Shown one piece after another: positions 35,833 to 56,113 of a stretch of 64,000 nt of DNA (position 1 is its first letter; each line of letters begins with the position of its first letter). Position numbers and translations under genes: made by a program. The DNA lies in NCBI GenBank assembly GCA_017431625.1, contig JAFRKQ010000021.1:77324-141323 (forward strand). The letters are read 5' to 3'. This DNA comes from a bacterium (lineage in GTDB: Bacteria > Patescibacteriota > Microgenomatia > UBA1400 > PJMF01). The notes beneath the pieces were generated by a model that saw nothing but the letters and a program-made list of their open reading frames with translations, was not told the origin of the DNA and ran no database searches.

Positions 35833-36717
35833 TTATGTGGTCACAAAAGTAGGATAAATTAAACCAGTGGTAATTGCTTGTGGACGCAAGTCTTCAATTT
35901 CTGCCAAACCCACTTTACCCCAATACAAATCACGAATATCATGAGTGGGATCACGCAAATAAGCCGCCACTTGATGATAGCCTTCCCAATAAACCAAATC
36001 CTTGGTAAATCCCCCGGGCTGACTGGTATCGCGAACACCCCGCTTGACGCGCAAACTATTGGTAAAAGCGCGCGCCGGCGATAAACCTAAACGCAAATTT
36101 TGCTGGTACACCGTCTTAAAATCCGCCGTCTGTGCTAAATAAACCAAGGTATAAAGCAAAGCAGCTTGTCGCAGATCGGGATTGTTTTTATCCTTACTAT
36201 TATAAATGGCCAGACCTTCTTCTGTTTTTTTCCAGTATTTTTGACGTTGACGCATCTGTGCGTGCCACGGCTGGTGCTCATCATTGAGTCGACGCAAAAG
36301 ATGGGTTTGGATTTCGTGATTGAGGACACTGACGAATTGCTCTTGACTGACTTTGGCCGGCCACTGGACGCTGAGAGTCAGATCATCGCGCATCATAAAG
36401 CGACTATTTTGCTGGCGACTTTTGACTAAAGTAATGGGTGCCATGCCCAAGCGCACGCACAAATCTCGCAATAAAACTTCCAGCTCAATAAAACTCAAGG
36501 GGTGATCAATCACACTCGTCGCTTTGAGAGAGTGTTGATGCAAATAAGCTTGTGAGTGCTCATACTCCAAGCGGCTAGGAAGGCCATATTTGGTCAAAAC
36601 AGCCAGTGAATAATCTCGAGCATAAACAAACTGAGGATTGTAATCACCCCCACGCTCCCAAAATATTTGCTTTTGTTCGTCTAAATTTAATGGTACCAAA
36701 TTACTAATCAAACTCAC
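35833..36717 (-). CDS. DUF1704-like protein (QEGLA-motif Tyr/Phe carboxypeptidase-like family)
   Basis: …NHEIQTHLLRRLN… and …KKTEEGLAIYNS… (EEGLA variant of the QEGLA motif). Confidence 0.45.
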   Translation of the reverse strand: MSLISNLVPLNLDEQKQIFWERGGDYNPQFVYARDYSLAVLTKYGLPSRLEYEHSQAYLHQHSLKATSVIDHPLSFIELEVLLRDLCVRLGMAPITLVKSRQQNSRFMMRDDLTLSVQWPAKVSQEQFVSVLNHEIQTHLLRRLNDEHQPWHAQMRQRQKYWKKTEEGLAIYNSKDKNNPDLRQAALLYTLVYLAQTADFKTVYQQNLRLGLSPARAFTNSLRVKRGVRDTSQPGGFTKDLVYWEGYHQVAAYLRDPTHDIRDLYWGKVGLAEIEDLRPQAITTGLIYPTFVTT

Positions 36718-36741
36718 CCCAGTATTATACCATATCAGACA

Positions 36742-38373
36742 CTACTTTTTACCCCATTTTGGCAAGCGCAACTTGAAGCGCTGATTTTGATAATCGACAA
36801 TATCGGAAAGTTTTTCAATTTCGCGTGAACTATTACCCAGACGAATATAAAATTTTTCTTGCTTGACCCCATTTTTGTCCGTAATATTGGTATATAATGC
36901 CGAGTGACCTTTTTTGACTTTGACCACGCAGACTTCTTTATTTTCCAGCACCGGAAAAAAGATTTCAATCCTTCTGGCGGCAAAATGTTGACCGTAAGCC
37001 TGAGAAATCATCGCTCGCAAGTGTAACTCAAAACCATCTTTGTCAGGTTTTTTGAGCGTGGTGTAGTCATTTTCCAACCCCAAGACGCGAGCATCGTCGC
37101 TCACCCCAATAATTAATAAACCACCATCAGTATTATTGAAAGCGGCTACACTTTTGAGAATCGCATGTTCCAAATTTTTGTTGAGTTGTTTTTGATTGAG
37201 ATCAAACCGCAGTGTAGACTTGAACTCGAGTCCCGCATTTTCCCCATTTTTGATAATGTCCTTGATCTGATTGGTAAAATAAAAGCGTTTGGAATAACGA
37301 GCATAGTAATAGAAAAAAGTTAGCAAATTGGCCGCAATAAAAATCAAAAGCACCCAAGTGATCCACGATGTGCGAATGCCCCAAAAGCCAAAAGGCTCAA
37401 CTTCAGGCACAATAATGGCCAACAAATTATACTCAGTACGCGTGACTGCCGGCGAGATTTTGACCCAATACGTCTGACGATCTAGCTGATAGGGGAAGAT
37501 ATCTCGTCCCGTCTCAAGATATGTTTGCCACAAGTGATTATCCAAAAAACGTCCGCGCCGCTCGGCCAAAAGACCACCGGGTATATTCTCACCGTCAAGA
37601 GGCAACAATTCTGCCTCGAGGCTGGCTTGTAGCGACATGGTCAAATCCCAAAAGTAAAGCTGATGAGTAGCGTGACTGCTAGCAAAAGTAATCGCTCCAA
37701 TTTGTTTTTGATGAGGCCGCAAAGCCGTAAACTCTCCCGGAAAATCTATTGCCGCCAAAAAATATACTTTTTCGCCACTATCATCTTGTGTCAACCAAAA
37801 AAGTGCGATTTCACGGGATTTTTCTGGTTTGGCGGCATACCAATAGATCTGATCGGGTGGAAGTTCTTGCGTCAAAAGCCAAGCGACAAAATCCTGGTCA
37901 ACACCGGTTTCGAGCTGCCAAGTCACGTCACCAGTATCTTCATCTCGAGTGGGACGCGCGAGCCACTGATTATTGACACCGACACGGCCAAACTGTAAAT
38001 ATTTGAGCGCTGGCAATTGTTTCAAGGTGGGAGTCAAACTGGCGACAAATTGCTCGCCGTCTGTCTCGCTAGTCACTTCGCTCACAACTCTGGTAGCAAG
38101 ATTTCCTTGATAATCCAACCAAAAATATAAACTATCATAAGCAGGATAAAATTGCGTGACAAATTCATTTTCCACGCGCTCCAGCTCATCACGATTGATC
38201 AGCAAATGAATTTGCCGACTACTCAATAAATATTGAGCCACCAGAGCCAAAACCACAAAAACTAACAACCAACGCGCTCGATCAAACAGTGTCCGACCGC
38301 TGACATCCCGCACTTGAAAAGGCTGGAGAAGGCGATTGTTCTGTACTGACTGCCAAAAAGGTATTTTTGCCAT
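36742..38373 (-). CDS. Membrane protein: TM1, ~310-aa extracytoplasmic domain, TM2, cytoplasmic AlbA_2 (Schlafen-like) DNA-binding domain
   Basis: C-terminus …ENAGLEFKSTLRFD…AFNNTDGGLLIIGVSDDARVLGLE…CVVKVKKGHSALYT…KFYIRLGNSSREI matches AlbA_2. Start corrected to MAKIPFWQ (ATG at 38373). Confidence 0.6.
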   Translation of the reverse strand: MAKIPFWQSVQNNRLLQPFQVRDVSGRTLFDRARWLLVFVVLALVAQYLLSSRQIHLLINRDELERVENEFVTQFYPAYDSLYFWLDYQGNLATRVVSEVTSETDGEQFVASLTPTLKQLPALKYLQFGRVGVNNQWLARPTRDEDTGDVTWQLETGVDQDFVAWLLTQELPPDQIYWYAAKPEKSREIALFWLTQDDSGEKVYFLAAIDFPGEFTALRPHQKQIGAITFASSHATHQLYFWDLTMSLQASLEAELLPLDGENIPGGLLAERRGRFLDNHLWQTYLETGRDIFPYQLDRQTYWVKISPAVTRTEYNLLAIIVPEVEPFGFWGIRTSWITWVLLIFIAANLLTFFYYYARYSKRFYFTNQIKDIIKNGENAGLEFKSTLRFDLNQKQLNKNLEHAILKSVAAFNNTDGGLLIIGVSDDARVLGLENDYTTLKKPDKDGFELHLRAMISQAYGQHFAARRIEIFFPVLENKEVCVVKVKKGHSALYTNITDKNGVKQEKFYIRLGNSSREIEKLSDIVDYQNQRFKLRLPKWGKK

Positions 38374-38545
38374 TTGCTCATATTTTACCCCAAAAAATAC
38401 TATTTTGAGAGGCAATTTGCCAACAAGACAAAAAACCTTGGCACACGCGCCAATGTGACCACAGATGTTCACTGCTTGACCCGCAAACATCATTTTGCCT
38501 TAGCAAAATGTGCACATGTGAGGTATAATAAGCAGTATTAACAAT

Positions 38546-41536: not shown

Positions 41537-42079
41537 ATGTCAAGATATGATTTTTCCAGCGTACAAGGAGAGATTAGAGGTGGCGGCTATCAAGCTGGTC
41601 CGACGATTTTGCAAGTGGGCAAGTGGTCATTTGAAGAATCAAAATCGGGCAAGCCATATTTACTGATGGAGTGGAACAAAGAAGGGGTTATCCGAGACGA
41701 CGGGCGGCCGTTTACCTCATCCCGATTGTATTTTTCCTCCCCTAAGGCGATTCAAATCGCCCGCGGGAAGCTCCACGATCTTTGCGACATCCTCAATGTA
41801 GACTATGATGCTGATCTAATGACCGATGATGATTACATCATCAACTTTGGCGAAAAACTGCACGGTCGAAGTTTGAATGCCGAACTGGTGGAAACTGGCG
41901 GCAAAAGTGAGAAAGGGCTTCCGTTTTTAGGTGTCCGTTTGCGTGGACAAGATGGCCAAAAGGTAGATTTGTTTATAAAGGAAAAAGGTGATGCCAATTA
42001 TAGTTCGCCTCGACACAAACATCCAAGTCCCCGTATGGAAGACATGGACACGCAAGATAGCAGCGACATCCCATTTTAA
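41537..42079 (+). CDS. ssb: Single-stranded DNA-binding protein-like (divergent OB fold, acidic tail ending DIPF)
   Basis: C-terminus …MDTQDSSDIPF matches the SSB protein-interaction tip motif (D-I-P-F). Confidence 0.5.
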   Translation: MSRYDFSSVQGEIRGGGYQAGPTILQVGKWSFEESKSGKPYLLMEWNKEGVIRDDGRPFTSSRLYFSSPKAIQIARGKLHDLCDILNVDYDADLMTDDDYIINFGEKLHGRSLNAELVETGGKSEKGLPFLGVRLRGQDGQKVDLFIKEKGDANYSSPRHKHPSPRMEDMDTQDSSDIPF

Positions 42080-42102
42080 GGGCAAAAGCGAAGAAAGATG
42101 AA

Positions 42103-42423
42103 ATGCAAGTACAGCTAAATCTTGACACGGTCAGTTTGCAGGAGTTGTTAGCAGCGACAGCAGAAGGTTATCGCTCACGTATGAACACCTTATCTGCTTG
42201 TGTCGGGCGGATAAATGAGCTTTTGGCTCAAATTGAGAAAAAGTCTAACCTGGAAAATGATTTAAACGCCGCAAAAACGGCTCAAAAACAGATGGATGAG
42301 ACCCACAGCCAACTTGAAAAAGAAAACAGTAGGCTTTTTGAAGAAAATGCGGCACTTAAAACTGAAATTCAAAAACTCGAAGAACAATTGAATAAATCGA
42401 CGACAAGAGAGGAAATTTTATGA
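42103..42423 (+). CDS. Coiled-coil phage protein
   Basis: Heptad-rich sequence throughout. Confidence 0.4.
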   Translation: MQVQLNLDTVSLQELLAATAEGYRSRMNTLSACVGRINELLAQIEKKSNLENDLNAAKTAQKQMDETHSQLEKENSRLFEENAALKTEIQKLEEQLNKSTTREEIL

Positions 42424-42695
42424 TTACCGAACAGAAAAAACAGTTGTCAAGGGTAAACGACCACAAACCCACTATTCGCCAGTTGATGGCCAAACCACCG
42501 CTGTCAAAAGGAACAAAAATCCATGCTGAAGATATCTGCGTCACCTTCAAATACAAGCGCTATCGCCAGTTGCTTTACCTTAAGCGTGACAAGGCAGCTG
42601 AAGATCAAGAGCTGAGGATGCTTAATGAACTGAGAGTCTTTCGGCGCAACATTGAGTTGCCGTCATTTATAAGTGAGTACGGACTGGATAAATAA
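42420..42695 (+). CDS. Hypothetical phage protein (91 aa)
   Basis: Overlaps upstream stop. Confidence 0.35.
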   Translation: MITEQKKQLSRVNDHKPTIRQLMAKPPLSKGTKIHAEDICVTFKYKRYRQLLYLKRDKAAEDQELRMLNELRVFRRNIELPSFISEYGLDK

Positions 42696-42821
42696 CGATG
42701 AAAGCTGTGTAGACAAATTGTCTAATGACTGGTGAAAATTCACCAAAATTCACCACCCCCTACTTGAGGTAATTTGAAAAGTTTCGGGTCGGCAAAAAAG
42801 ACAAAATGTGAACAACTAAAT

Positions 42822-43226
42822 ATGCCAAAAACAGCCAAACTAACCACCATCCCCAAACCACAAAAGCAAGCGATTGCTATTGCCATGAGAAGTGAAGGGG
42901 TGAGTTTACGCCAAATTGGCAAGACTCTAGGCGTTGACCACGTCACGGTGAAAAACTGGACCAGCAAAGAAGCAGTGGGTAATCGTCTGGCAATTGTGGC
43001 AGCATCTTATCAAGAGGAATTGGCCGAGCGTAACAAAGGACTTTTGGATTTGGCGCTCACGAGACTTGAGGAACTGATACCAAAATCTGAATCAATCAGT
43101 GAAGTGCTTAAAGCGGCTGAGTTTGCTCGGGGCAAACCAGAGCAACAAGCTGGTAATAATGTACAAGTGAATGTGACCGGGTTTGCACCAGCGGCCAAAA
43201 TAAAGGATCAATATGGGGAGTTTTAA
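42822..43226 (+). CDS. Terminase small subunit-like HTH protein
   Basis: HTH (GVSLRQIGKTLGVDHVTVKNW) and position directly upstream of, and overlapping, the large terminase. Start uncertain (track 42774 is TTG). Confidence 0.45.
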   Translation: MPKTAKLTTIPKPQKQAIAIAMRSEGVSLRQIGKTLGVDHVTVKNWTSKEAVGNRLAIVAASYQEELAERNKGLLDLALTRLEELIPKSESISEVLKAAEFARGKPEQQAGNNVQVNVTGFAPAAKIKDQYGEF

Positions 43227-44001
43227 CTACCAGAAGTTCTGTGCCGATCACCTGACTGTCATCAACAAACAGGCAGAGCGTGTTCCGTTTGTCTTGAATG
43301 GCGTCCAGGAGAGATTCCTTCGTGAGCGAGGACGCCTCAACCTGATTCTAAAAGCACGTCAACAAGGATTTTCGACGCTCTTGGTCGCTATGGCTGTAAT
43401 CCGTTTCCTTTTTCAAGAAAACTTCTACGCCATGATTATTGCTAACGATGCCGACAATGCCATTGGTCTGCTTGACCGAGCCAAGTTTTTTCTCAAGTCA
43501 GCGGAAGAATCGTACGGAGCAAAGGTACCCCTTAAATACAATTCACGTTATGAACTGCACAATAGCGAAAATAACGCTACAATCTTGATTGGCACGGCGC
43601 AAAATGTAGACGTAGGCCGATCAAAAACAATTCACTTCCTCCACGCTAGCGAGGCAGCGTTTTTCCGTGACCTTGATCGGATCTTATCATCAGCCTTGCA
43701 AGCCGTTCCAGAAACTGGTGAAGTTTACCTGGAGTCTACGGCTAATGGTTTTAATGAATACAAAAAGCTCTGGGACGCAGCAGTATTGAAGGAAAATAAT
43801 TTTACACCGTTGTTTTTCCCGGCGTCAGCCTTTTATGAGTCTGAATATTTGGAAATTAAGAAAAAAGAGCTAGGACGGTATTTTCCTCAAGAATATCCAG
43901 AGACGTCAGAGGAAGCATTTTTAACCAGTGGCGACACGTATTTTGACAAGGAAGCACTTGAGTATTATTTGAAAAATGTAAAGGAGGTTCAACATGATTA
44001 G
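43213..44001 (+). CDS. Terminase large subunit, ATPase domain only
   Basis: …KARQQGFSTLLVAMAV… (Walker A-like), …IHFLHASEAAF… (Walker B), …QEYPETSEEAFLTSGDTYF. Ends where the nuclease domain normally begins. Confidence 0.7.
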   Translation: MGSFNYQKFCADHLTVINKQAERVPFVLNGVQERFLRERGRLNLILKARQQGFSTLLVAMAVIRFLFQENFYAMIIANDADNAIGLLDRAKFFLKSAEESYGAKVPLKYNSRYELHNSENNATILIGTAQNVDVGRSKTIHFLHASEAAFFRDLDRILSSALQAVPETGEVYLESTANGFNEYKKLWDAAVLKENNFTPLFFPASAFYESEYLEIKKKELGRYFPQEYPETSEEAFLTSGDTYFDKEALEYYLKNVKEVQHD

Positions 44002-44097
44002 CAATAACATACATTTACACCTAGGAAATACCTGGGAAGTTCCTAGGTACTGCTTGTAGCTAAGTTCATATAAAAATTTGTAAACATGAAAGGAGAT

Positions 44098-44325
44098 ATG
44101 TCACAAACGCTTAGAGAACTGATAAACAAAACTAATCTCAACCGCATTAACCTGCATGTAGTGGCGTACGATGGTGCTGAAGGGTTTATTACTGACTACC
44201 CGTCAGCGGAGGCTTTGGAGGCGGAACGCCTTGACCACTTCGTGGAGGTGACGGCTGACCACAGTATGAAAGACAGCAAACCTGTCGTTAAAGTGAAATT
44301 ATTAAAAAATAGGAAGGAAAAATGA
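44098..44325 (+). CDS. Hypothetical protein inside the terminase-interrupting segment
   Basis: RBS aaaggag + ATG 44098. Confidence 0.4.
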   Translation: MSQTLRELINKTNLNRINLHVVAYDGAEGFITDYPSAEALEAERLDHFVEVTADHSMKDSKPVVKVKLLKNRKEK

Positions 44326-44419
44326 ACAAATTTGAAAATTTTACAGAAAGCGAAATTAGAAGCTATGATCTTGACGGGAATCTTATCAAGAGATTTTATG
44401 AAAAATAAGAAAGGGGAAA

Positions 44420-44818
44420 ATGAAATACTTTATATCAATGCCGATGAATGGAGTGCCAGACGACATAATAAATACTGTCATGCGAGAAGTTCGAGATTAC
44501 ATAAGTCAAAGAACTGGCGGAGAGTGGATCAATAACATCATTTCTAGCGATTTACAACACCCGCTAGAATATCTTGGCGAATCTATTAGGCGTATGGCGC
44601 AAGCAGACGCTGTATTCTTCGTATCAATTGATTCAAGAGAGTTACAGTATAGATGGATAGACAGAAGAGGTTGTAATGTTGAATTTGTTGCCGCTAAAGA
44701 GTATGGGATAGATTGCTTTTATTTACGTGCAATTGAAAAACCAAATAACTCATATGAAATAGTACAAGAAACAGGTAATGTAAGAGCTCACCATGAAAGA
44801 ATTAGTTGGGATATGTGA
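44420..44818 (+). CDS. DUF4406 / nucleoside 2-deoxyribosyltransferase-like protein (tentative)
   Basis: RBS aagggg + ATG. MKYFISMPMNG… and …QADAVFFVS…NVEFVAAKEYGIDCFYL pattern. Confidence 0.35.
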   Translation: MKYFISMPMNGVPDDIINTVMREVRDYISQRTGGEWINNIISSDLQHPLEYLGESIRRMAQADAVFFVSIDSRELQYRWIDRRGCNVEFVAAKEYGIDCFYLRAIEKPNNSYEIVQETGNVRAHHERISWDM

Positions 44819-44832
44819 AAGGTTAGATTTGT

Positions 44833-45480
44833 ATGAGCAACCAATTCCGACAATACCGAGATTTTCAAAAGGGAGAGTTTATTCTGGCGTTTGCTGACAC
44901 TGCGGTCGGTGGTCACGATTACTGTGCTTGTCAATTCCTCTCGCAAGATCAATTAGACGTCCCACTGGTTTTTCACTCACAAGTTTCAGCGACCTTAATG
45001 ACGCCTGCTTTACATCTAAAACTTGAAGAAATCTATGACATTACTGGCGTGCAGCCCTGTATTGCCTATGAACGTAATAACGGTGGGCAATTTGAGCTGG
45101 AGCGACTAAGCGTCCTAAATAAAAACCAGAAATATTATATTTATGAACAGCGTGACAAAGATGGTCAACCGAATGGCAAGCTTGGGTGGGATACCAATGC
45201 AGCCACGCGACCAAAAATGCTCCAAGAGCTGCAAGAGTGTATCAACGCCAAACTCATTACACTTTATGACGAGCCGACAGTCAATGAGTTATTTTCGTTT
45301 ATAATCTCAAAGTCTGGTAAACCAGAAGCAGAAAAGTCAGCTCATGACGATCTAGTCATGTCACTGGCTGGCGTGTGGCAGTTGTACCAAAGTGAAAGCA
45401 AGCCTCAAAAGATAGATTACACTCAGTTTTCGCGAAGTTTGCCAGACCAACAGCTGTTTTCAAGAAATGGGTTGTTTTAA
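44833..45480 (+). CDS. Terminase large subunit, RNaseH-like nuclease domain only
   Basis: …FILAFADTAVGGHDYCA…AHDDLVMSLAGVW… typical terminase nuclease motifs. Own RBS gaaagg + ATG. Confidence 0.65.
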   Translation: MSNQFRQYRDFQKGEFILAFADTAVGGHDYCACQFLSQDQLDVPLVFHSQVSATLMTPALHLKLEEIYDITGVQPCIAYERNNGGQFELERLSVLNKNQKYYIYEQRDKDGQPNGKLGWDTNAATRPKMLQELQECINAKLITLYDEPTVNELFSFIISKSGKPEAEKSAHDDLVMSLAGVWQLYQSESKPQKIDYTQFSRSLPDQQLFSRNGLF

Positions 45481-45786
45481 TTCGTTTTTATTTTTAGATC
45501 TAATCAAGCAGATTATGTTTATAAGATGCATGATGCCGATGATAACACAAAAACCGATATTGCCATTATAAAGACTAGCTGCCAATCCTAAAATAAAAAA
45601 CAAAATAAACAGCGGCACGAATCCAGTTATAAAAAAAGAGCCAATTCCAATGACACTCATAATAAAACCCCAAAAGTGATAGTTGTATACCAGTTCTATG
45701 AAAGTGAAAACCATAGTAATATTTGTTAAGTATATTGACGTACGATAATATTTGTTTACATTATTTTTTGACATTTGTTCTTTCAT
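45460..45786 (-). CDS. Small 3-TM membrane protein encoded antisense to the structural module (moron candidate)
   Basis: Only minus-strand ORF between terminase and structural genes. Three hydrophobic helices. Confidence 0.45.
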   Translation of the reverse strand: MKEQMSKNNVNKYYRTSIYLTNITMVFTFIELVYNYHFWGFIMSVIGIGSFFITGFVPLFILFFILGLAASLYNGNIGFCVIIGIMHLINIICLIRSKNKNELKQPIS

Positions 45787-45957
45787 TGTCTAAAATGTTT
45801 GGATTGTTATATAAACTCTGGACATGCTGTCTGGCGTAGTTTTCCGAACATCATTGGCTCGTTACAACCACGTGTATTATACCACAATCAAATACTGTAT
45901 CGTTATTGTATTGTGACTCTATCTATACTCTATCCATATACTATTTTTAACTCTGGC

Positions 45958-45985
45958 TTGACAACAGACACAAAATAACTATAAC
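45958..45985 (+). promoter_or_regulatory. Phage promoter-like element copy 1 (TTGACA-16-TATAAC)
   Basis: cTTGACAacagacacaaaATAACTATAAc. Two more copies at 48643 and 57961. Confidence 0.55.
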
Positions 45986-45992
45986 TACACTC

Positions 45993-46640
45993 ATGCTGAT
46001 GACCGTTGATGATATCCAAAAACAAATCCACGTAATGTATGAAGGTGACGTGGATGCACCTGCCAATACTAGCGATGAAGATTATCAGATCCGCTTGCGC
46101 CTGATTAACCAAGCCATTGCCGAGTGGGAAGCAGTCCCCAATGTCTTATGGCGAGAATTGGTTAAAGTGATTGTCACAACCTGCCAGACTGATGAGGAGA
46201 ATATGAGTTTAGATTTGCCGGCGGATTTTGCCAAGATGTACTCAGGTTACATCACCATTGCGGATCAAAAAATCCAGGAAGTGCCTATAGAGTATGTGAC
46301 GGCAAAAATCGGTGAAGATTCAATCGAGCCTTTCTTTTATGTCACTGGCAATTCTGCCCAAGGTTATAAGGCGAATTTTATCAACCTGGATGCGTGCGAG
46401 GGTGCAATTATCAGCTATAGCTATATCAAGCAGGCAGAAGCCATGAACACCCCAACTGATGTCCCAGAGCTTTCAGATCCCACCTATATCATTCACCGGG
46501 TAGTAGCTGAACTTTTTGCGCAAGATTCAGATCCTAAATCTACCCGTGAGCTGTCGATCTCTCAGTCGCTTTTAGAGCAGATGATTGTCCGCAATAGCCT
46601 CACCTCTATCGATGGCGAGAACACTTATGAAAGGAGTTAG
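45993..46640 (+). CDS. Hypothetical phage structural protein (215 aa)
   Basis: First gene after promoter copy 1. Confidence 0.45.
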   Translation: MLMTVDDIQKQIHVMYEGDVDAPANTSDEDYQIRLRLINQAIAEWEAVPNVLWRELVKVIVTTCQTDEENMSLDLPADFAKMYSGYITIADQKIQEVPIEYVTAKIGEDSIEPFFYVTGNSAQGYKANFINLDACEGAIISYSYIKQAEAMNTPTDVPELSDPTYIIHRVVAELFAQDSDPKSTRELSISQSLLEQMIVRNSLTSIDGENTYERS

Positions 46641-46642
46641 TC

Positions 46643-48646
46643 ATGCCTTTCTCTGTCAGCGCAATGGATTCGGAACAACCCAAAGTCAATTTACAAATTG
46701 ACAAATTTGAAGGTGTCAACAATCTGGTGCGCGACGCTCGAACTAAGCCGTCAGAGGCCGTGACTGCACTTAATCTTTACCAAGTGGAGGATGGTGTCTG
46801 GACACCCAGACCCGGAACAATTCAATTTGGTCAAGCCTTGCCTGGTAGTGACAATTCAGTAATTAACGGCGCGGCCGAATATGTAACCACCGATACTCAC
46901 AACAATGAGGTGCGATCAATTATTGTCGTTATTGACGGGAAACCATACAAATCTACCGATGCGGGAGAAACTTGGGTGCGGATTAACGGTACAACTTTTG
47001 ATGCGACTGCCAAAATTCGCTTTTTGCAACTAGGCGGTCAGATGTATATTTTTAATGGAATCAATCCTTTGGCCATTTATGAAGGCTCGACACTGACAAC
47101 TTATGCTGGCATCTCGGCGCCCACAAATCTGTCTGCCAGTCTTGGCAGTGGTTTGTCAGCCGGCAGCTACAAACAATACTATCAAGTGACAGCGATTAAT
47201 GACGTGGGTGAAACTGCCGCTTGCAGTGAAATTTATATTGCTACCTCCAAAGAGCGAGATATGTGGTCAGCTGGCAACAACGAGAGTGTAGTTTTAAGCT
47301 GGACTGCCGTTTCTGGAGCTACTGGCTATCAAGTGTATTGGTCGGATATTTCAGGCCATGAAAATCTGCTTGCTCGGGTCACTACCAACTCATTCACTGA
47401 TGACAATACCAATACTGCCAATCCTTACGTCGACACGCCTGACGACAACACCACCGCCGCCCCAGTTTTCGCCAGCGCTTGGATTAGTGATAATGCCATT
47501 TACGCTACCAATGATCCTGAGCATCCTTATCGAGTTTATCGCACAGGAACAGGGGTTAATTTGGGCAAGTTTAGCGCATTTTATGATGGATTTTGGATCG
47601 ATTTGGAACGTGGAGGGCGTGAAAAACCCAAAGCGGGACGACATTATCAGTCGGGTAGCGGTGAGGGGCGCTCGACAATTTTTTGCTCAACCCCAGAAGG
47701 ACATGGTAGTGTCTGGCAAATTGTGGTGGACACGGCAACTGTGGGTGAAGATTCTTTCCCCGCACCAGCTGCTTATAAAATTACAGGCTCAGTAGGGACA
47801 GACTGTGTCGATGGTGTCATCAATGTAGAAAATGATGTATTCTTTCCCAACAAGCAAGGTATGTACGCACTTGGACCGGAAAAAAACTATTTTGGAATAT
47901 TACGAACAAATAACTTAGCCGCGATAATTATCGAGTACTGGAATAGTCTTAAAGGTGGGAAAATCAAGGATATTGCCGCTTATTATTGGAAAAACAAGGT
48001 GCTTATATCAGTCTCCACAGATGGTATCACCAATAACCGCACCATTATTTACGACCGCGAACGTTTGCGCTGGTATACAGATTGGTCGATTGGCTTTCGC
48101 TCGTTTTTTGAGTTTACCGATAGCGCCGGAACATCACACTTAATTGGCATCCACGAACATGGTAATACTCTGACTGAAATTTCCGAAAATGTCAAAGGTG
48201 ATTTGGGAAAACCATTTCGCTGTATTTATTTATCTGGGCGGCTGCCTCTTAATAAATCCTGGAATAAATTTGCGAAAATCAAAAAAGCCTACGTGATGCT
48301 TGGGCGGCTGCGAGGGACAGTGAAATTTTCAATTTTGGGCACGCTTAAGAAAAAGGGTTACGCGGCCCTGGCCTCAAGAGCGATTTCCATTTCGCTTTCC
48401 GGAGCAGGAATTGGCTGGGATGTGATTGGTCTGTCCTTAATGGGTGCAACCGATGGCAAACCCGCTTCATATTCAGAATCATCAGACATCCGCTACCTTA
48501 AGGTCAACAAAAAGATCCGCGATATCCAATTCAAGCTCGAATCTGAATCCATTGACAGTGAATTTACGCTTTTAGGTCTCAAGGCCGAAGGCTTCCAAAT
48601 TAACACCTCTGACCCAAGTGTTTGGAAGCTTAAAAAACAGGCTTGA
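46643..48646 (+). CDS. Phage structural protein with BNR/Asp-box (KSTDAGETW) and FN3-like regions (candidate tailspike/depolymerase)
   Basis: 667 aa. Asp-box SxDxGxTW, FN3-like segment …SAPTNLSA…YYQVTAINDVGETAA…. Confidence 0.45.
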   Translation: MPFSVSAMDSEQPKVNLQIDKFEGVNNLVRDARTKPSEAVTALNLYQVEDGVWTPRPGTIQFGQALPGSDNSVINGAAEYVTTDTHNNEVRSIIVVIDGKPYKSTDAGETWVRINGTTFDATAKIRFLQLGGQMYIFNGINPLAIYEGSTLTTYAGISAPTNLSASLGSGLSAGSYKQYYQVTAINDVGETAACSEIYIATSKERDMWSAGNNESVVLSWTAVSGATGYQVYWSDISGHENLLARVTTNSFTDDNTNTANPYVDTPDDNTTAAPVFASAWISDNAIYATNDPEHPYRVYRTGTGVNLGKFSAFYDGFWIDLERGGREKPKAGRHYQSGSGEGRSTIFCSTPEGHGSVWQIVVDTATVGEDSFPAPAAYKITGSVGTDCVDGVINVENDVFFPNKQGMYALGPEKNYFGILRTNNLAAIIIEYWNSLKGGKIKDIAAYYWKNKVLISVSTDGITNNRTIIYDRERLRWYTDWSIGFRSFFEFTDSAGTSHLIGIHEHGNTLTEISENVKGDLGKPFRCIYLSGRLPLNKSWNKFAKIKKAYVMLGRLRGTVKFSILGTLKKKGYAALASRAISISLSGAGIGWDVIGLSLMGATDGKPASYSESSDIRYLKVNKKIRDIQFKLESESIDSEFTLLGLKAEGFQINTSDPSVWKLKKQA

Positions 48647-48670
48647 CAAAATCACTCAAATAACTATAAG
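48643..48670 (+). promoter_or_regulatory. Phage promoter-like element copy 2 (TTGACA-16-TATAAG)
   Basis: gcTTGACAaaatcactcaaATAACTATAAg. Upstream gene's TGA stop lies inside the -35. Confidence 0.55.
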
Positions 48671-48677
48671 TTGGGAC

Positions 48678-49772
48678 ATGGCAAACGCAAAATTATCACG
48701 CTTTACGTCACTATTTACGACCACACTGGCTCAAACACTCGAGGCGAGTGATACAACGATGGTTTTGACCAGTACCGAGCATCTAGTGCAAGGCTCGATG
48801 GTGACACTTACGATTGACCGGGTTGACGCCAATAATTCAGCCACGCTGTCGCAACGTGAAGTAGTGCGTGGCATTGTTTCTGACGATAACATCATTGCCC
48901 TCGAGCGTGGTTTTGACGACACAACAATTCAAGCTCATTCAACTGGTGCGATTGTAGAAGAGATTTTTACGGCCGGCGACTGGAATATCATGAAAGACAA
49001 GGTTAATAGTGTCGATGGCTTGATCACCAATGAAATCCCAACTGGCACTGTTGACGGCGCTAATACTGTTTTTACCCTTTCTCTATCCCCAGGATATCGC
49101 GGATGTAGCGTTTATCGAGGGAGCGTGCGCCTTAATCCATGCAGTCTCGATGAGAATGGCGATCCTATCACTTCTAGTGGTGATTACTATCTTGATGGCA
49201 ATGAACTTCATTTCGTTGATGCACCGTGGCCGGAAACATCTTTACTGGTAGACTACAAGCTATCAGATAACGATCTGGCCTCCGCTGACACAGACTATGA
49301 GGACGGCAGTGGCAGTATTTCTGCCCTGGAGCTGCAAGAAATTCGCCAAATGTTGCAATCAGTAGTGTCACAAAACGAGCAAACAAGCCAAACCCTCTCT
49401 AGTATCCAACAAACTCAAACGGCGCAAGGTAACACGATGGCGCAAATGGCCAGTGTAGAAATGGGACTTGTCGATGACGTTTATGCCCTCAAGCGAGCCA
49501 ATGGCAGTGTTGCCAATGTAACTTCAGTTGAAGAGGAACCAGTGGGACTGGTTGACGGGAGTAATCAATATTACACACTCACTTATACGCCGGTTGCACA
49601 ATCACTTAAAGTCTCCCGCGCTGGTCTGCGAATGACTAAATTTAAGGACTTTGAACTAGCGCCAGCAGATTATCTACCAAGTCCAAACGACCCCAAGGTA
49701 ATTAAATTTTACAATGCGCCAGACAATGTTAATTTACTTGTGAACTATGACACAACGGAAACTGTAACTTAA
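48678..49772 (+). CDS. Tail fibre/baseplate-associated protein
   Basis: Start corrected to MANAKLSRF after promoter copy 2. Confidence 0.45.
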   Translation: MANAKLSRFTSLFTTTLAQTLEASDTTMVLTSTEHLVQGSMVTLTIDRVDANNSATLSQREVVRGIVSDDNIIALERGFDDTTIQAHSTGAIVEEIFTAGDWNIMKDKVNSVDGLITNEIPTGTVDGANTVFTLSLSPGYRGCSVYRGSVRLNPCSLDENGDPITSSGDYYLDGNELHFVDAPWPETSLLVDYKLSDNDLASADTDYEDGSGSISALELQEIRQMLQSVVSQNEQTSQTLSSIQQTQTAQGNTMAQMASVEMGLVDDVYALKRANGSVANVTSVEEEPVGLVDGSNQYYTLTYTPVAQSLKVSRAGLRMTKFKDFELAPADYLPSPNDPKVIKFYNAPDNVNLLVNYDTTETVT

Positions 49773-49794
49773 TTAACGAGTCAGAAAGGTAAAA

Positions 49795-50889
49795 ATGGCA
49801 CTCACTAAAGTTAAATCACCAGAAGTAGATTTAGACGATCTCGGTATTGTGGCACTACAGTCTGATGTATCGACGCTGCAAACTAGTCTTGACACCCTGC
49901 AAACAACCGTGGGCGGTCACACCGCCCAAATTGGGACACTAGAGTCAAATGTTTCTACCCTGCAAACTACTACCACCGACCACGGCACGCGGATTACAGC
50001 CTTAGAGACGAACGACACAGCTCAAGATAGTGCAATCACAGCGCTACAAGCTGCTGTGGCTAATCAGCAAGGCGCAACGACATACATAGGGACGGTCAAC
50101 GCCACCAATGCCGCGGTGACAGCCAATACTGGACTACTCGACACGCGAGCAAGTGAACTTGGTCGCACACCCTTGCAAGTGGGTTACACACTCACCGATA
50201 CCGATGGTCATGAATGGCGTTATGAAGGCTCAACGCTGGGTTGGGTGGATACCGGTTATTTTGGCGTGCAACAAGCGACCAATTCCTCTTTGGGCATTGT
50301 GAAGGGCACTGCAACTGACCTTGGGATTAGCGTGGCTCTGGATGGTACAATGAGTGTTAATGGCTTAAGCGATGCTTTATCTGGCAAGGTGGATAAAGTC
50401 ACTGGCAAAGGTTTATCCACCAACGATTATGATGCTACAGCCGTGGCGCAAGTGGCCAAAATCGCCACTCTTGAGACAGATTTGAGCAGTTTAACTTCAA
50501 CCGTAAGTGGTCACACCAGCTCTATCTCAACGATTAATTCAACCATTGGCGATATCCAAACCGTTAATACGGCTCAGGGAACGGCAATTACTAATTTGCA
50601 AACGGCAATTGCAGCCATCACTTTGTCAAGTTTTGTCCAACAGGGAATTATTGATATTTTAACAGACTCAGCATCAGGAAGTGTGGCTGCATTTACGCTT
50701 AATCGGACACCACTTGTAGCTGATAAAGTTGACGTTTACAAAAATGGCCTCAAGATGGCACCAAACACTAGCGGACAAACGGATAGGGATTATACTTTAG
50801 CTAATGGTGTGGTTACTTTCAACACCAATCCTCGCGCTGGCTCAAGAATTTGGGCACAGTATTATCCCGCACCCGCATCTGGCAGCTAG
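49795..50889 (+). CDS. Tail fibre protein with coiled-coil heptad repeats
   Basis: VSTLQTSLDTLQTTVGGHTAQIGTLESNVSTLQTT… repeats. Conserved RBS agaaaggtaaaaATG. Confidence 0.55.
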   Translation: MALTKVKSPEVDLDDLGIVALQSDVSTLQTSLDTLQTTVGGHTAQIGTLESNVSTLQTTTTDHGTRITALETNDTAQDSAITALQAAVANQQGATTYIGTVNATNAAVTANTGLLDTRASELGRTPLQVGYTLTDTDGHEWRYEGSTLGWVDTGYFGVQQATNSSLGIVKGTATDLGISVALDGTMSVNGLSDALSGKVDKVTGKGLSTNDYDATAVAQVAKIATLETDLSSLTSTVSGHTSSISTINSTIGDIQTVNTAQGTAITNLQTAIAAITLSSFVQQGIIDILTDSASGSVAAFTLNRTPLVADKVDVYKNGLKMAPNTSGQTDRDYTLANGVVTFNTNPRAGSRIWAQYYPAPASGS

Positions 50890-50907
50890 ATCACAAAAAG
50901 GAGTGCA

Positions 50908-52020
50908 ATGGCGGCAACCAAAATTGATCTCGAGCAGATAAACATGGCCTCACTATTATCTGATGAGGCTAACAATGGTTTGTCTCTTGGCCAAGACGGT
51001 GGTTTATTTGCCGCAGCAAATCAATCTTCACTGCAGATTGAGGCAGGAAGCAATATTTCACTGTCTACAAACCAAAATACAGGTACTACCATCATTACTG
51101 CTACTGACACTATTTATGACGATTCAGCCCTTGTTTCTCGAGTAACTAGCATTGAGAGCACCAATACTTCTCAAGCTACAGCAATATCCGAACTGCAAAC
51201 GACAATTACTGGTTTGACGGGAGCGATGGTGTATCTTGGTGATATTAATGAGTCAACGGCCGATGTCACCCAAGTGAAACTAAACAACCGCATGGTGGCG
51301 CTTGGTAAAAACAGCGCACTACAAGGCTACACGATTGTCGATAGCGATGGCAATGATTGGGTGTATGACGCGACCTCGAGTCAATGGCGTAATATTGGTT
51401 ATCAGGCGATTCCGGTGGCTTCAACAACAACTCCGGGTATTGTCCAGCTTAATGATAGCATCAGCTCAACATCAACATCACAAGCAGCTACTGCTAATGC
51501 CGTCAAAACAGCGTATGATCTCGCTGCCTCTAAAGGTACTGGAACTATCACTCAAGTCAAAGCTAATGGTACAAGTGTGGCCACTTCTGGCGTCGCCAAT
51601 ATTCCGGCCGCAAGTACAAGTGCTTACGGTGTTACTAAGCTTTCAAGTTCAACATCGTCGACAAGTACAGCTCTTGCGGCTACAGCTAGCGCGGTTAAGG
51701 CAGCGTACGATCGTGGATCAACTGGCGTTACTAATGCGGCGACAGCGCAAAGTACGGCAGTGGCTGCCGCTAAGACATTTGACAATATGATTTGGAACGA
51801 AACACCGTCGGGCACTAAAAATGGCACCAATAAGACCTTTACGATTGCTAATACGCCAGTCGCAACAGACAAAATACATTTCAAAATGAATGGCGTCGAA
51901 CTGACACAAGGGTCAAGCGCAGACTACACAGTCAGCTCGACCACACTAACTATTACTGCTAACTATCATGCACCAGAAAGCACCGACACGCTGACGGTAA
52001 GCTACGAGAAAGCGAGCTAA
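50908..52020 (+). CDS. Tail fibre protein with phage-tail-fibre repeat motifs
   Basis: Repeated …SSTSTSQAATANAVKTAYD… / …SSTSTALAATASAVKAAYD… units. Confidence 0.6.
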   Translation: MAATKIDLEQINMASLLSDEANNGLSLGQDGGLFAAANQSSLQIEAGSNISLSTNQNTGTTIITATDTIYDDSALVSRVTSIESTNTSQATAISELQTTITGLTGAMVYLGDINESTADVTQVKLNNRMVALGKNSALQGYTIVDSDGNDWVYDATSSQWRNIGYQAIPVASTTTPGIVQLNDSISSTSTSQAATANAVKTAYDLAASKGTGTITQVKANGTSVATSGVANIPAASTSAYGVTKLSSSTSSTSTALAATASAVKAAYDRGSTGVTNAATAQSTAVAAAKTFDNMIWNETPSGTKNGTNKTFTIANTPVATDKIHFKMNGVELTQGSSADYTVSSTTLTITANYHAPESTDTLTVSYEKAS

Positions 52021-52022
52021 TA

Positions 52023-52406
52023 ATGTCATTAATTAAAATTGAGCAAATCAACAATTTATCTCAAGCACTTCAATTATATTCTAAAACCGTGAGTGGACTG
52101 GGGCATTTTTATCGTGTCGGGAAAATTGTCTATTTTGTAGCGGAACCGAATTTGAAACGCGAATCTACTATAAACGCGTGGCAAGTGTTACAAATCGGCA
52201 CAATTCCCAGCGGTTACAAACCTAATTTTCCTGACGGCCAAAGTGATTTCATGGTGCCAGTCCAGAATGGCCCAATTATTGGCTTCATGATGCGTGTTTA
52301 CAACACAGCAATTGATTGGTGTAATTTGTCTGGTTCGGCAATCACCGTTCCGACGACACCGGTTTTTACGCTGACGTGGTGGACAAACGATGACTATCCA
52401 AGCTAA
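52023..52406 (+). CDS. Small tail-fibre-associated protein (paralogue A; N-terminus MSLIKIEQINN)
   Basis: N-terminus paralogous to the interrupted gene downstream. Confidence 0.45.
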   Translation: MSLIKIEQINNLSQALQLYSKTVSGLGHFYRVGKIVYFVAEPNLKRESTINAWQVLQIGTIPSGYKPNFPDGQSDFMVPVQNGPIIGFMMRVYNTAIDWCNLSGSAITVPTTPVFTLTWWTNDDYPS

Positions 52407-52417
52407 GAAAGGACTAT

Positions 52418-52812
52418 ATGAGTTTAATAAGACTTGATCAAATCAAGAATCCGTTGGGGGGGGCGGCCTCTCAGTAGATACCGTGCCAACTGGTGGAAGC
52501 AATAATTTGGCAACAAGTAGTGCAGTAGCTAATTTAATTAAAATTGTGTCTTACAACCAAAGCGTATCACTGACAAACACACAAGGAGATAATAGAGTTG
52601 AATGGTCTGGACTCGCAGTTGATGGTTATACACCTACCCGGATATTTTCTTTTATACACGGGTATGCTGGTTCTGTACAATGCGATTGTGAAGCATATGA
52701 CCTCATTGACAACACCATACATTTTGTGGGCTACGCCCGCAATCTTGATACTCCGTCACAACTAAGAACTGTCAACTTCACCTTAATAACACTCTGGATT
52801 AAAGTGAGTTAA
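52418..52812 (+). pseudogene. Paralogue B (MSLIRLDQIKN…) interrupted at a G8 homopolymer; +1 G would fuse to the 52483 reading frame
   Basis: ATG 52418 reaches TAG at 52475-52477 just after G8 (52456-52463). Frame +1 is open from 52432 to 52812 (…LSVDTVPTGGSNNLATSSAVANLIK…). Confidence 0.55.
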
Positions 52813-53031
52813 GCAGTTCGTTTAAGTAGTTGGTCCACTCATCCAATTAGGAGAGCTATCAATAGTGTTATAATAGGTATACAACAGTCAGACTTCGACA
52901 TAACAACGAATTTCTTATCTGGTCTTGCCGCAATTGTGTCATATCGTGATTATACCACATTATATCACAAAAAACATATAACCACACATAAAACGCGGTT
53001 ATCATCAATAATAGCAACACAGAAAGGCATA

Positions 53032-53217
53032 ATGGCACTTTACACAATCCGTTCCGGCGTCAACAACCACCCAGAAAGAACAGTCTTACAGTTTACCAGC
53101 GACATGGTGCGGCGAGGCGGGGTAATTTCTGGTTTTGTCACCAGTGAAAAAGCTGGCGGCGTGGGTATGAGTGTGGATGTATCCGCCGGCACCCGATTAG
53201 CAAGAGTTTTCCCCTAA
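53032..53217 (+). CDS. Small phage protein (61 aa)
   Basis: Conserved structural-gene RBS acagaaaggcataATG. Track start 52936 is an alternative codon. Confidence 0.35.
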   Translation: MALYTIRSGVNNHPERTVLQFTSDMVRRGGVISGFVTSEKAGGVGMSVDVSAGTRLARVFP

Positions 53218-53351
53218 AGACAGGTTGTATCACTTAGAAGATTCCCCCCCCCCAACGAAGCTGGGATTTGCTTTTGTTTAATAAGTGACATTTCTGAAAG
53301 AAATTTTAGTTAATCGCAAGAAAATGTCAATATAACAATGTATATAAAACG

Positions 53352-53380
53352 TTGACAAAAACGTAGGTGAGTGGTAAAAT
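53352..53380 (+). promoter_or_regulatory. Sigma70-like promoter TTGACA-17-TAAAAT upstream of Panacea-domain gene
   Basis: -35 at 53352-53357, -10 at 53375-53380. Confidence 0.5.
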
Positions 53381-53449
53381 ACCAGTTCCTCATATTGCTA
53401 AAGTGTGTCCAGTGTGAGATAATGATAAACACATAGGTAGAAAGTTGAA

Positions 53450-53908
53450 GTGCAAGCGATAAATATAGCAAACTATTTGATATTGTTAGCAACAAATATT
53501 GGAGAAAGTATCACAAATATGAAACTCCAAAAGCTGCTTTATTATTCGTATGCTTGGTACCTAGTTGATACAAGAAATGAACGAAGATTGTTTAATGATG
53601 ATATCGAGGCCTGGAAATATGGACCGGTGGTGAGATCTGTGTATGATGTATTCAAGAATCGCGGTGCCGATTCAATTAAACATCCATATGTTTTGGGCAC
53701 GCACGATGAAAATTATGGTCTTGACTTGGCTCAACAGGAGGTAGTTGAAGATGTATATAAAAGCTATGGAATGAAAAACGCAATTGAGCTGATGGAGATG
53801 ACGCACAATGAAGAGCCGTGGATTAAGACGTATCAAGAGGGCAAAAACAACGTGATTGATCCACAGATAATCTATCAGTTCTACTCCCAGCTTAGTCAGA
53901 GTGTTTAA
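53450..53908 (+). CDS. Panacea-domain (DUF4065, SocA-like antitoxin family) protein
   Basis: …IANYLILLATNIGESITNMKLQKLLYYSYAWYLVDTRNERRLFNDDIEAWKYGPVVRSVYDVFK… matches the DUF4065/Panacea core. GTG start. Confidence 0.65.
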   Translation: MQAINIANYLILLATNIGESITNMKLQKLLYYSYAWYLVDTRNERRLFNDDIEAWKYGPVVRSVYDVFKNRGADSIKHPYVLGTHDENYGLDLAQQEVVEDVYKSYGMKNAIELMEMTHNEEPWIKTYQEGKNNVIDPQIIYQFYSQLSQSV

Positions 53909-53914
53909 TGGGCT

Positions 53915-54370
53915 ATGTCATCTGATCGAATTAAAAGATATCTTGATAGCGTTGCTAAACAGCAGACTGCGGTTAAAGTTCGGCACAAGTTTGCGTTAGC
54001 ATGTAACATGAGTTTTTCTTTTGCCAATCTTAATGTTGCTTATGAAGGCTTTGATTTACGTCATGATCAAGATAAATGTCCAGATCAAGAAGTAAAAATC
54101 GATAGATTAGTTAATGCGTTTGAGCTTTTATCGCAAAGATCTATTGGATTAATCGCCAAAGGAGAGAATCATTGTCATCCGATTGAGCGTGAGAAACTCG
54201 TTGGATGTGGAATGAAGTCATTAGTTGATTTTTACCCAAATGAAACGTTTTATCAACTCGGATCAAATTATTATGCGAGACCTGAAAGAATAATTGGGTA
54301 TTACGATCGAAAAACTAATATCTTTCAAGTCTGTATTATCGATCTCCATCATCAAGTTTATCCTAAATAA
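53915..54370 (+). CDS. Unknown 151-aa protein immediately downstream of Panacea gene (candidate toxin/effector partner)
   Basis: 7-bp spacing, same strand, no recognisable domain. Cys/His-containing (…GENHCHPIEREK…IIDLHHQVYPK). Confidence 0.4.
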   Translation: MSSDRIKRYLDSVAKQQTAVKVRHKFALACNMSFSFANLNVAYEGFDLRHDQDKCPDQEVKIDRLVNAFELLSQRSIGLIAKGENHCHPIEREKLVGCGMKSLVDFYPNETFYQLGSNYYARPERIIGYYDRKTNIFQVCIIDLHHQVYPK

Positions 54371-54395
54371 CAATGTTTATTGGTTTGTGCTTTTG

Positions 54396-54466: not shown

Positions 54467-54468
54467 AT

Positions 54469-56103: not shown

Positions 56104-56113
56104 GATATCCTTT

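Follow-up and report, generated by a model that had tools for sequence, protein, structure and literature searches.

The large terminase (TerL) is a hallmark enzyme of tailed phages and herpesviruses. Annotation pipelines, phylogenetic marker sets, and mechanistic models all take it to be one protein with two domains. In the "inchworm" model of T4 packaging, force passes between the N- and C-terminal domains of the enzyme. According to a comparative review, the TerL-associated C-terminal nuclease domain is universal across the Caudovirales (PMC7824862). The present analysis concerns a TerL whose domains are encoded by two genes, terL-N for the ATPase and terL-C for the nuclease, in a prophage on the 151-kb MAG (metagenome-assembled genome) contig JAFRKQ010000021.1 (assembly GCA_017431625.1) of a bacterium of the Patescibacteriota. 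The stretch analyzed, 64,000 nt long (positions 77,324–141,323 of the contig), is referred to as the window, and coordinates are those of the window unless a relative is named. For comparison, 151 relative loci were fetched from genome and viral contig collections; L-numbers denote these loci, and P0001 denotes a fused homologue. The window locus resembles the canonical TerLs (T4 gp17, Sf6 gp2, D6E, and HK97) in domain order, in catalytic residues, and in having an upstream gene for a helix-turn-helix (HTH) protein like the small terminase (TerS). It differs from them in that the two domains are separate gene products, cut at the linker.

The closest conceptual parallels are found among T4-like phages, in their genes in pieces: Aeh1 nrdA, which is split by mobE, the T4 topoisomerase genes 39 and 60 with mobA, and 43A/43B of Aeromonas phage 25, among others. 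The pieces of NrdA and gp43 reassemble into active enzyme (PMC2988022). In the window, likewise, an enzyme that is contiguous in relatives such as P0001 is encoded as two open reading frames (ORFs) around foreign genes, and two relatives (L144 and L134) carry HNH endonucleases at the terL junction. Gene 43 of phages 25 and 44RR offers a further likeness, since the split there may be older than the arrival of the inserted gene. In contrast to these systems, the window inserts are not endonucleases, the split is mostly insert-free in the clade, the cut in terL falls cleanly between domains rather than within a functional region, and reassembly of the terminase halves is presumptive.

Genes for terL interrupted by introns or inteins form a second group of related systems, found in Jug, crAss-like, and Twort-like phages and, as inteins, in actinophages. 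The literature describes such interrupted genes as being repaired through splicing, of the RNA or of the protein (PMC12880540). They too consist of two or more ORFs, and the intervening DNA may hold genes, but the window has no ribozyme, no intein, and no continuous ORF in its nearest relatives. Fractured genes are adjacent ORFs that encode the halves of an enzyme, sometimes with a homing endonuclease between them (Dassa et al., 2009; PMC2677866). Split-intein halves ligate the products of such genes, whereas the terL halves of the window carry no extra residues at the break.

Separation of packaging from cutting has a partial precedent in phi29, which needs no DNA cutting and whose gp16 has a vestigial nuclease-like C-terminal domain, its nuclease activity having been lost. 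This system illustrates that no active nuclease need be attached to a terminase-type ATPase for it to package DNA (PMC7672431). Unlike phi29, the window clade keeps a fully equipped nuclease as a separate, adjacent, and probably co-translated protein. The DNA between the window halves also recalls phage morons: the cassette is present in one lineage and missing at the same site in close relatives, its GC content is lower, and a promoter-like site precedes its second gene. It is unlike morons in lying inside what is normally the coding unit of a single enzyme; no terminator was found in it, and its promoter is a consensus match.

The explanation that best accounts for the locus, and that we consider quite probable, is that a two-gene TerL is common to the whole clade, that the window lineage then gained a cassette at the gene boundary, and that the halves act as separate proteins. 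A natural two-gene TerL was not described in the literature searched; coverage of that literature was incomplete, and an earlier mention is possible.

The ATPase and Nuclease Domains Are Complementary Products of Two Genes

The packaging genes of the window are as follows.

43213..44001, + strand: terL-N, 262 aa, the ATPase (motor) domain of the large terminase as a separate protein (PHROG match, alignment, PDB profile)
44833..45480, + strand: terL-C, stand-alone RNase H-like nuclease domain, 215 aa (phrog_24361, alignment, conserved residues)
42774..43226, + strand: HTH protein in the small-terminase position (weak HTH_38/HTH_23 matches; 14-nt overlap with the start of terL-N)

The initial annotation, made without database searches, described four ORFs here, with a gap of 831 bp (44002–44832) between the outer two, and these coordinates are correct. 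It took 43213–44001 for a terminase ATPase that ends at the domain junction and 44833–45480 for an RNase H-like nuclease with its own ATG. Both assignments are borne out. In PHROG, terL-N matched phrog_2, terminase large subunit (E 3e-13), and terL-C matched phrog_24361, "terminase" (E 2e-13); neither had an above-threshold match in Pfam. A profile of terL-N relatives retrieved the ATPase domain of T4/RB49 gp17 from the PDB (E 3e-7), and a tblastn search with terL-C reached the gp17-type nuclease region of T4-like phages. The upstream HTH gene has an equally placed homologue in L001 (73% aa identity), L003, and L009, and its counterpart in L172 matches Terminase_2 (PF03592). All four genes of the terL region (NCBI locus tags IJJ08_03765–03780) are annotated as "hypothetical protein."

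Alignment to full-length homologues had been proposed as a means of locating the break. When the two halves were joined and used as a protein query, full-length homologues of 476–505 aa were recovered at 44%–53% identity and 93%–99% coverage, together with many proteins of ∼262–270 aa that cover the N half alone. terL-N aligns with residues 1 to ∼262 of the fused homologues and terL-C with residues ∼271–486. In the joint alignment, terL-N ends in ..YYLKNVKEVQHD* and terL-C begins with MSNQFRQYRDFQKGEF. Both break ends fall in the linker of fused P0001 (..YLNLVKPYQTITKEQNFRRYRQWQRGEF); the halves are therefore complementary, and no residues have been lost. In the AlphaFold model of P0001 (predicted local distance difference test score, pLDDT, 90.3), the break corresponds to a coil (residues 257–270) between the last helix of the ATPase domain (249–256) and the first strand of the C domain (271–273). 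The model resembles the structures of T4 gp17 (E 1e-24) and of Sf6 gp2, D6E, and HK97 TerL, and its C domain superposes on the G20c and RB49 nuclease domains with target-normalized TM scores of 0.77–0.82.

The residues expected of both activities are conserved. The Walker A-like motif KARQQGFS (K47/R49/G52/S54) and the catalytic E147 (..HASE) are kept among the split N halves (≥95% of 76 distinct sequences), as are the catalytic D22, E80, D172, and D173 among the split C halves (≥95% of 71 distinct sequences). In comparison with L001, the rate of nonsynonymous substitution (dN) is 0.077 for terL-N and 0.113 for terL-C, and synonymous sites are saturated; saturation of the synonymous rate (dS) precludes calculation of a dN/dS ratio, but the combination of low dN with saturated dS indicates that both halves are kept under purifying selection. 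The window thus has the ATPase and the RNase H-like nuclease of a TerL, and what sets it apart is that they are not in one polypeptide. After the terL-N stop (43999–44001) come 831 nt with many stops in every frame and then the new start at 44833, so the halves can be made only as separate polypeptides, and it is as separate proteins that they almost certainly work. The same arrangement of terL-N, genes for 75–79 aa and 132 aa, and terL-C was found at 99.9%–100% nucleotide identity in at least eight contigs from other samples, and it is therefore not an assembly artifact.

The Split Is Common to the Clade and Older than the Insert

To the initial annotation, the insert had divided terL. Comparison with the relatives reverses cause and effect. 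The fused or split state of each locus was called by tblastn and ORF logic; both domains were present in 137 loci, and terL was split in 100 of these and fused in 37. An uninterrupted terL, which the initial annotation had suggested looking for, thus does exist in relatives (P0001 among them), but the fused loci are mostly distant Firmicutes prophages at 26%–37% identity. A search with terL-C points in the same direction: among the best 120 of 731 matches, 118 are stand-alone proteins of 198–252 aa and none is fused. None of the stand-alone relatives of the C half is annotated, and nearly all split C halves are 210–228 aa long. Split-TerL phages were found with CPR (Candidate Phyla Radiation)/Patescibacteria, with Gammaproteobacteria, and in gut MAGs, and they make up hundreds of clusters at 90% identity.

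At least 72 distinct split junctions from metagenomes could be compared, and in 55 of these, terL-C overlaps terL-N and lies in its +1 frame. The commonest form (21/72) is an identical 8-nt overlap, ATGTTTAG. There, ATG-TTT-AGR supplies the Met-Phe-Arg of the conserved F-R-x-Y-R motif, and terL-N terminates at the TAG that these codons contain in the other frame. An ATG directly before F-R-x-Y-R is present in 63 of the 72. Shine-Dalgarno (SD)-like motifs (≥4 nt, at a spacing suited to initiation) are found ahead of 35 of the 72 terL-C starts, compared with 20% of background start-like triplets. The position of the start codon before F-R-x-Y-R, together with the terL-N TAG lying inside TTT-AGA, suggests that translation of terL-C is probably coupled to termination of terL-N.

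A different reading of the same junctions is that programmed +1 frameshifting or transcriptional slippage yields a fused TerL in the clade and that the window is a nonfunctional derivative. The predominance of the +1 frame would fit such a mechanism, as would the ready interconversion of fused and split forms, the loose resemblance of the commonest junction (SD .. AAT GTT TAG A) to the prfB +1 site, and the A-runs at some junctions, e.g., GTAAAAAATG in L003. The +1 frame, however, follows from the fact that ATG-TTT-AGR contains the TAG of the other frame, and both the placement of the ATG and the enrichment of SD motifs at initiation spacing are features of a start site. There is no conserved P-site codon or slippery motif: L006 has GCA-TAG, and L004 has a 26-nt overlap free of repeats. 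A prfB-like +1 frameshift site was among the candidates rejected. The C frame is open for just 1–8 codons upstream of its ATG, and in 15 lineages, the window included, genes lie between the halves and fusion during decoding is excluded. Frameshifting is unlikely for the clade and impossible for the window, and the explanation as a whole is given very little weight.

On a neighbor-joining tree of the N domains, fused and split forms interleave, with at least 12 changes of state by parsimony from a fused root, although the number and direction of these transitions are provisional in a tree of one domain without support values. The plainest example is fused P0001 and split L172, which share 86% identity in the N half and 70% in the C half, while the nearest fused relative of P0001 reaches 68% in the N domain. 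In the P0001/L172 alignment, the linker has an 8-nt gap, so that the halves lie in different frames, and an ATG stands just before F-R in the split form.

Of the three possibilities that had been offered in the initial annotation, a naturally two-polypeptide terminase is therefore retained as the best reading, but as a property of the clade and not as a creation of the insert. The same source held that the split would be unremarkable if it proved common in the family. It is common in the family; "unremarkable" is open to dispute, since a clade-wide two-gene TerL is undescribed in the literature searched.

Some observations bear on the distribution of these phages. The split-terL contigs L021, L009, L018, L019, L020, and L026 were among the genome-contig matches, and many are binned with CPR/Patescibacteria MAGs. 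The bins include Roizmanbacteria, Saccharibacteria, Moranbacteria, and a KatS3mg101 bin, the binning of phage contigs being unreliable; fused P0001 is itself annotated as Saccharimonadales. Phages of CPR bacteria may thus owe a major group to the split-terL clade. Three cases were settled on inspection: Vibrio phage Va1 has an ordinary fused gp17-like gene; the truncated N half called in L161 (213 aa) is due to a scaffold gap of Ns at ∼1197–1216 rather than to mutation; and the divergent tail of L167 (1352–1459) is unrelated high-GC sequence at a chimeric assembly end.

A Relic of the Ancestral Junction Marks the Site of Insertion

Three features describe the insert and its left boundary.

44002..44832, + strand: 831-bp insert separating the terL-N stop from the terL-C start, absent from the closest relatives
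43980..44001, + strand: relic of the ancestral terL-N/terL-C junction, alignable codon for codon with L174, L003, and L176
44019..44048, + strand: imperfect inverted repeat ACCTAGGAA...TTCCTAGGT with 14-nt arms, 86% complementary, close to the left boundary on the insert side

The nearest nonidentical relatives of the window, L001 and L002, are 74%–76% identical at the nucleotide level and 91% (N) and 84% (C) identical at the amino acid level. They lack the insert, and their terL genes overlap by 32–38 nt. L003, L174, and L176 also lack it and have the canonical 8-nt junction, AAG GAG .. AAT GTT TAG, in which ATG TTT AGA encodes the M-F-R of terL-C. The counterpart of this junction is still recognizable in the window, which reads AAG GAG GTT CAA C-ATG-ATT-AG where L174 reads AAG GAG TTA A-ATG-TTT-AG. 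The relic comprises the SD sequence AAAGGAGG (43980–43987), an ATG in the +1 frame (43994–43996), and the 8-nt overlap ATGATTAG, which ends in the TAG at 43999–44001; in position, the relic equals the terL-C start of L001. By homology, foreign DNA begins at ∼43997–44006, and its GC content is 0.38, compared with 0.435 in the flanking halves. The existence of insert-less relatives and the survival of an SD-ATG-stop junction place the entry point of the cassette immediately behind the start codon of the ancestral terL-C. The present ATG of terL-C (44833) lies 14 nt past the stop of the 132-aa ORF. Judged against the closest relatives and more than 55 insert-less junctions, the insert is the derived state; by the same comparison, the split predates the insert and was not caused by it.

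The two ends of the insert share a short direct repeat of 9–12 nt (ATGA..AGCAA), seen as ATGA[TT]AGCAAT at 43994–44005 and as ATGAGCAAC at 44833–44841. No longer direct repeats were found to flank the insert: the best alignment was not significant, with 98 of 1,000 shuffles scoring as well or better. The hairpin in the left spacer folds about as well as shuffled sequence (z-score −0.19), has no U-tract, and is not terminator-like. The relic terL-C start also opens a 21-codon ORF (MISNNIHLHLGNTWEVPRYCL*) at 43994–44059, which runs through the inverted repeat; this ORF is probably not meaningful, although it would be translated if coupling to terL-N persists.

The initial annotation had also allowed for an intron-like or mobile insertion. 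Insertion stands, relative to the closest relatives, but what was inserted is a gene cassette between genes that were already separate, and it contains no ribozyme. The corresponding explanation would be that the 831 bp are a self-splicing group I or group II intron, or that an intein or split intein lies at the break, and that splicing restores a single-chain TerL. Transcript evidence for terL splicing in Jug phages (PMC12880540) gives it a precedent, and terL-N and terL-C are in the same frame in the window, their starts being 1,620 nt apart. The search for intron structure in 44002–44832 that had been recommended was negative at two sensitivities: apart from a chance hit to a CRISPR direct repeat (CRISPR-DR), Rfam gave no match with E ≤ 1 over 42000–47000 or with E ≤ 10 over 43900–44950. 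Two ORFs with their own SD sequences fill 640 of the 831 nt (∼77% coding), which leaves spacers of 84, 94, and 14 nt, too small to hold the core of a ribozyme. By Pfam, PHROG, or homologues, no homing endonuclease, maturase, or reverse transcriptase is encoded by either ORF. As to an intein, the halves (262 + 215 aa) have no residues to spare in comparison with fused homologues of 476–505 aa, there is no intein match in Pfam, and stops interrupt the frame. Furthermore, the SD-ATG-stop relic at 43980–44001 is a normal gene boundary, and the insert-less loci L001, L003, L174, and L176 have two overlapping ORFs in different frames; without a continuous ORF in these relatives, splicing would have no fused gene to rebuild. 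Splicing at this locus is therefore considered barely credible.

The Cassette Carries a Conserved Gene Pair

The contents of the cassette are listed below.

44086..44325, + strand: cargo gene 1, 79 aa (ATG 44086) or 75 aa (ATG 44098), an ORF without a family match
44420..44818, + strand: cargo gene 2, 132 aa, divergent DUF4406/nucleoside 2-deoxyribosyltransferase-like (homologues, phrog_355, model)
44340..44369, + strand: promoter-like site TTTACA-18-TATGAT, 10/12 by consensus scan alone, in the 94 nt that separate the two cargo genes

Cargo gene 1 had been given as 76 aa, a length that corresponds to neither start. The ATG at 44098 follows a strong ribosome-binding site (RBS), AAAGGAG, and is the start called by NCBI (MBQ6449990.1, 75 aa); it is the more likely of the two. 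Searches of Pfam and PHROG gave no match for this gene. Of the ribosome-binding sites, that of the 75-aa ORF is strong, that of the 132-aa ORF good, and that of the nuclease ORF moderate to weak.

The assignment of cargo gene 2 to a DUF4406/deoxyribosyltransferase-like family holds indirectly, through its homologues and a fold model. The protein matches phrog_355, nucleoside 2-deoxyribosyltransferase (NDT; E 3.7e-5). It has no Pfam match of its own, but 23 of 30 aligned homologues match DUF4406 (PF14359). Its relatives number 154 by exhaustive HMMER search (best identities, 53% and 47%), where a word-index search returned the query alone, and the homologues share an invariant RGC..E motif (C85, E88). 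The model (pLDDT 91) predicts a flavodoxin-like NDT fold, and the best PDB folds are the NDTs 2a0k, 6qai, 6evs, and 8qc0, all with weak E values of 9e-4 to 0.1. No established function for DUF4406 was found in the searchable literature.

In L170, the gene ahead of the closest DUF4406-like relative of cargo gene 2 is homologous to cargo gene 1 (46% identity, E 7e-16). The contig is unrelated, and its short flanks are unlike terminase; the occurrence of both genes side by side there indicates that they travel as a conserved pair. No terminator-like site was found within the insert.

The Junction Is a Recurrent Site of Insertion

Altogether, 15 distinct junctions have 29–912 nt between the halves. 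Genes found at this position in relatives of the window are as follows.

L144: 138 aa, 3617–4033, HNH_3 endonuclease (E 1e-12)
L134: 159 aa and 154 aa, 6770–7249 and 7239–7703, HNH_3 (E 4e-13) and a methyltransferase fragment
L123: 161 aa, no family match
L018: 113 aa, no family match above threshold
L023: 100 aa, no family match
L099: 78 aa, no family match
L086: 71 aa, no family match above threshold
L082: 66 aa, no family match
L152: 58 aa, no family match

In relatives, the inserted genes begin before the terL-N stop, the overlap often being 4 nt (ATGA), and for most of them terL-C starts within or directly against their end, three times through ATGTTTAG. With overlaps at both ends, the inserted genes (X) sit in a chain of N, X, and C. 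Among the 11 inserts of 160 nt or more, 9 leave terL-C in frame 0 relative to terL-N, by a rough count that includes L018, L082, L086, L123, L134, L144, L152, and the window. This excess arises from the usual overlaps of 4 nt (N to X) and 8 nt (X to C). A stop-codon recoding or decoding signal was considered for it and rejected, as the inserts contain all three stop codons.

HNH_3 genes lie exactly between the halves in two unrelated lineages, L144 and L134. These may be homing endonucleases that target the junction, or they may be packaging-associated HNH proteins.

Prophage Context

The window prophage has its portal gene at 58242–60131, 61% identical to the portal of L174, and homologues of the scaffold and major capsid protein (MCP) block of L174 at 60782–63827. 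A gene at 45993–46640 resembles the SU10 adaptor in a weak match below the Pfam cut-off (E 5.7e-5). Genes for tail fiber, tail, and a CHAP lysin are also present. The prophage is presumed to be active.

The initial annotation had raised the possibility of a recent disruption in a defective prophage, i.e., that insertion broke terL and DNA packaging was lost. Certain features of the locus would suit this explanation: the cassette was gained in a single lineage, the host is known as an uncultured MAG, and the gene order is unusual, with 12.5 kb between terL-C and the portal, unlike L174, L004, and L006. The split, however, is older than the insert and common to hundreds of relatives. Both halves are intact, with catalytic residues kept and low dN against saturated dS in comparison with L001, and terL-C has gained a proper new start 14 nt after the preceding stop. 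Genes at the same junction are tolerated in other lineages, the identical arrangement recurs in at least eight samples, and the sole apparent truncation in the clade (L161) is the scaffold gap described above. The packaging and head genes are present, and portal, capsid, tail, and lysis genes are intact ORFs. A defective prophage is thus judged unlikely, though it is less remote than frameshifting or splicing.

Several further observations were made in the surrounding DNA. A 12.5-kb block (45481–58014) separates terL-C from the block of small ORFs, portal, scaffold, and MCP (58015–63986). It contains a minus-strand membrane ORF, the SU10-adaptor-like gene, ORFs of 667, 384, and 364 aa, a tail-fiber-repeat protein, a SocA_Panacea gene (53450–53908), the CHAP lysin, and a minus-strand tail protein. 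The portal homologue is the gene at 58242–60131 and not the 667-aa ORF beside terL-C. In L174, L004, and L006, the portal follows terL-C within ∼300 bp, while L003 resembles the window; the block has the look of a rearranged module or of another large insertion. SocA/Panacea antitoxin-domain genes lie in the phage late region both in the window (53450–53908) and in L003 (7015–7503 and 8730–9203). Directly upstream of the phage region, on the minus strand at 35833–38493, are genes for a 583-aa Schlafen AlbA_2 protein (E 7e-16) and a 294-aa MATCAP-like peptidase (E 2e-22), which may be related to defense.

Discussion

The arrangement described here suggests how packaging could work in an uncultured phage clade whose structural genes weakly resemble those of SU10. 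terL-N would be the packaging ATPase and terL-C an RNase H-like headful or cos nuclease, with the cut between their genes placed in the flexible linker that joins the two domains in fused enzymes. In most members, translation of terL-C would be coupled to termination of terL-N. In the window lineage, a two-gene cassette was inserted just after the ancestral terL-C start, and terL-C has a new SD sequence and ATG at the right end of the insert. The two proteins would then associate noncovalently on the portal to package and cut DNA.

Several points weigh against this picture. A split TerL may not be functional, and the window prophage itself could be inactive. The RBS of its terL-C, GAAAGG with a 10-nt spacer, is moderate to weak, and at about half of the 72 junctions of the clade a recognizable SD sequence is absent. 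The best matches to either half among the cultured phages of GenBank are distant fused TerLs, with at most ∼31% amino acid identity by tblastn; a blastn search of 42700–46700 against GenBank phages gave no match. The history of fusion and splitting, as noted, depends on a provisional tree. Finally, the domains of T4 gp17 keep ATPase or nuclease activity when expressed separately but are not known to package DNA in trans; if they cannot, loss of the covalent link is not trivially tolerated.

A broader claim, which we consider somewhat more probable than its converse, is that a widespread clade of tailed phages packages DNA with separate ATPase and nuclease polypeptides, that the linker is dispensable, and that the gene boundary is a harmless hotspot for insertion. 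If so, the covalent linker would be dispensable although some motor models rely on it, and the 831-bp gap of the window would be natural proof that fusion during decoding is unnecessary. The natural split would provide a test of whether force generation, portal docking, and termination cutting need a tether between ATPase and nuclease, and it could reveal whether the two may differ in stoichiometry.

There are also consequences for how these phages are recognized, since current annotation misses the split genes entirely and labels every member encountered here "hypothetical protein." Virus detection and taxonomy based on TerL and expecting at least ∼450 aa would miss or misplace split-terL phages; one study set its minimum length for TerL at 400 aa (PMC12880540). 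The split may, more speculatively, alter sensing by the host. Avs-type defense sensors recognize TerL (e.g., PDB 8dgc), and it is a TerL in two pieces that they would meet in such phages. For the evolution of the family, the repeated insertion of HNH and cargo genes at the terL junction indicates that a domain boundary can turn into a site of gene insertion.

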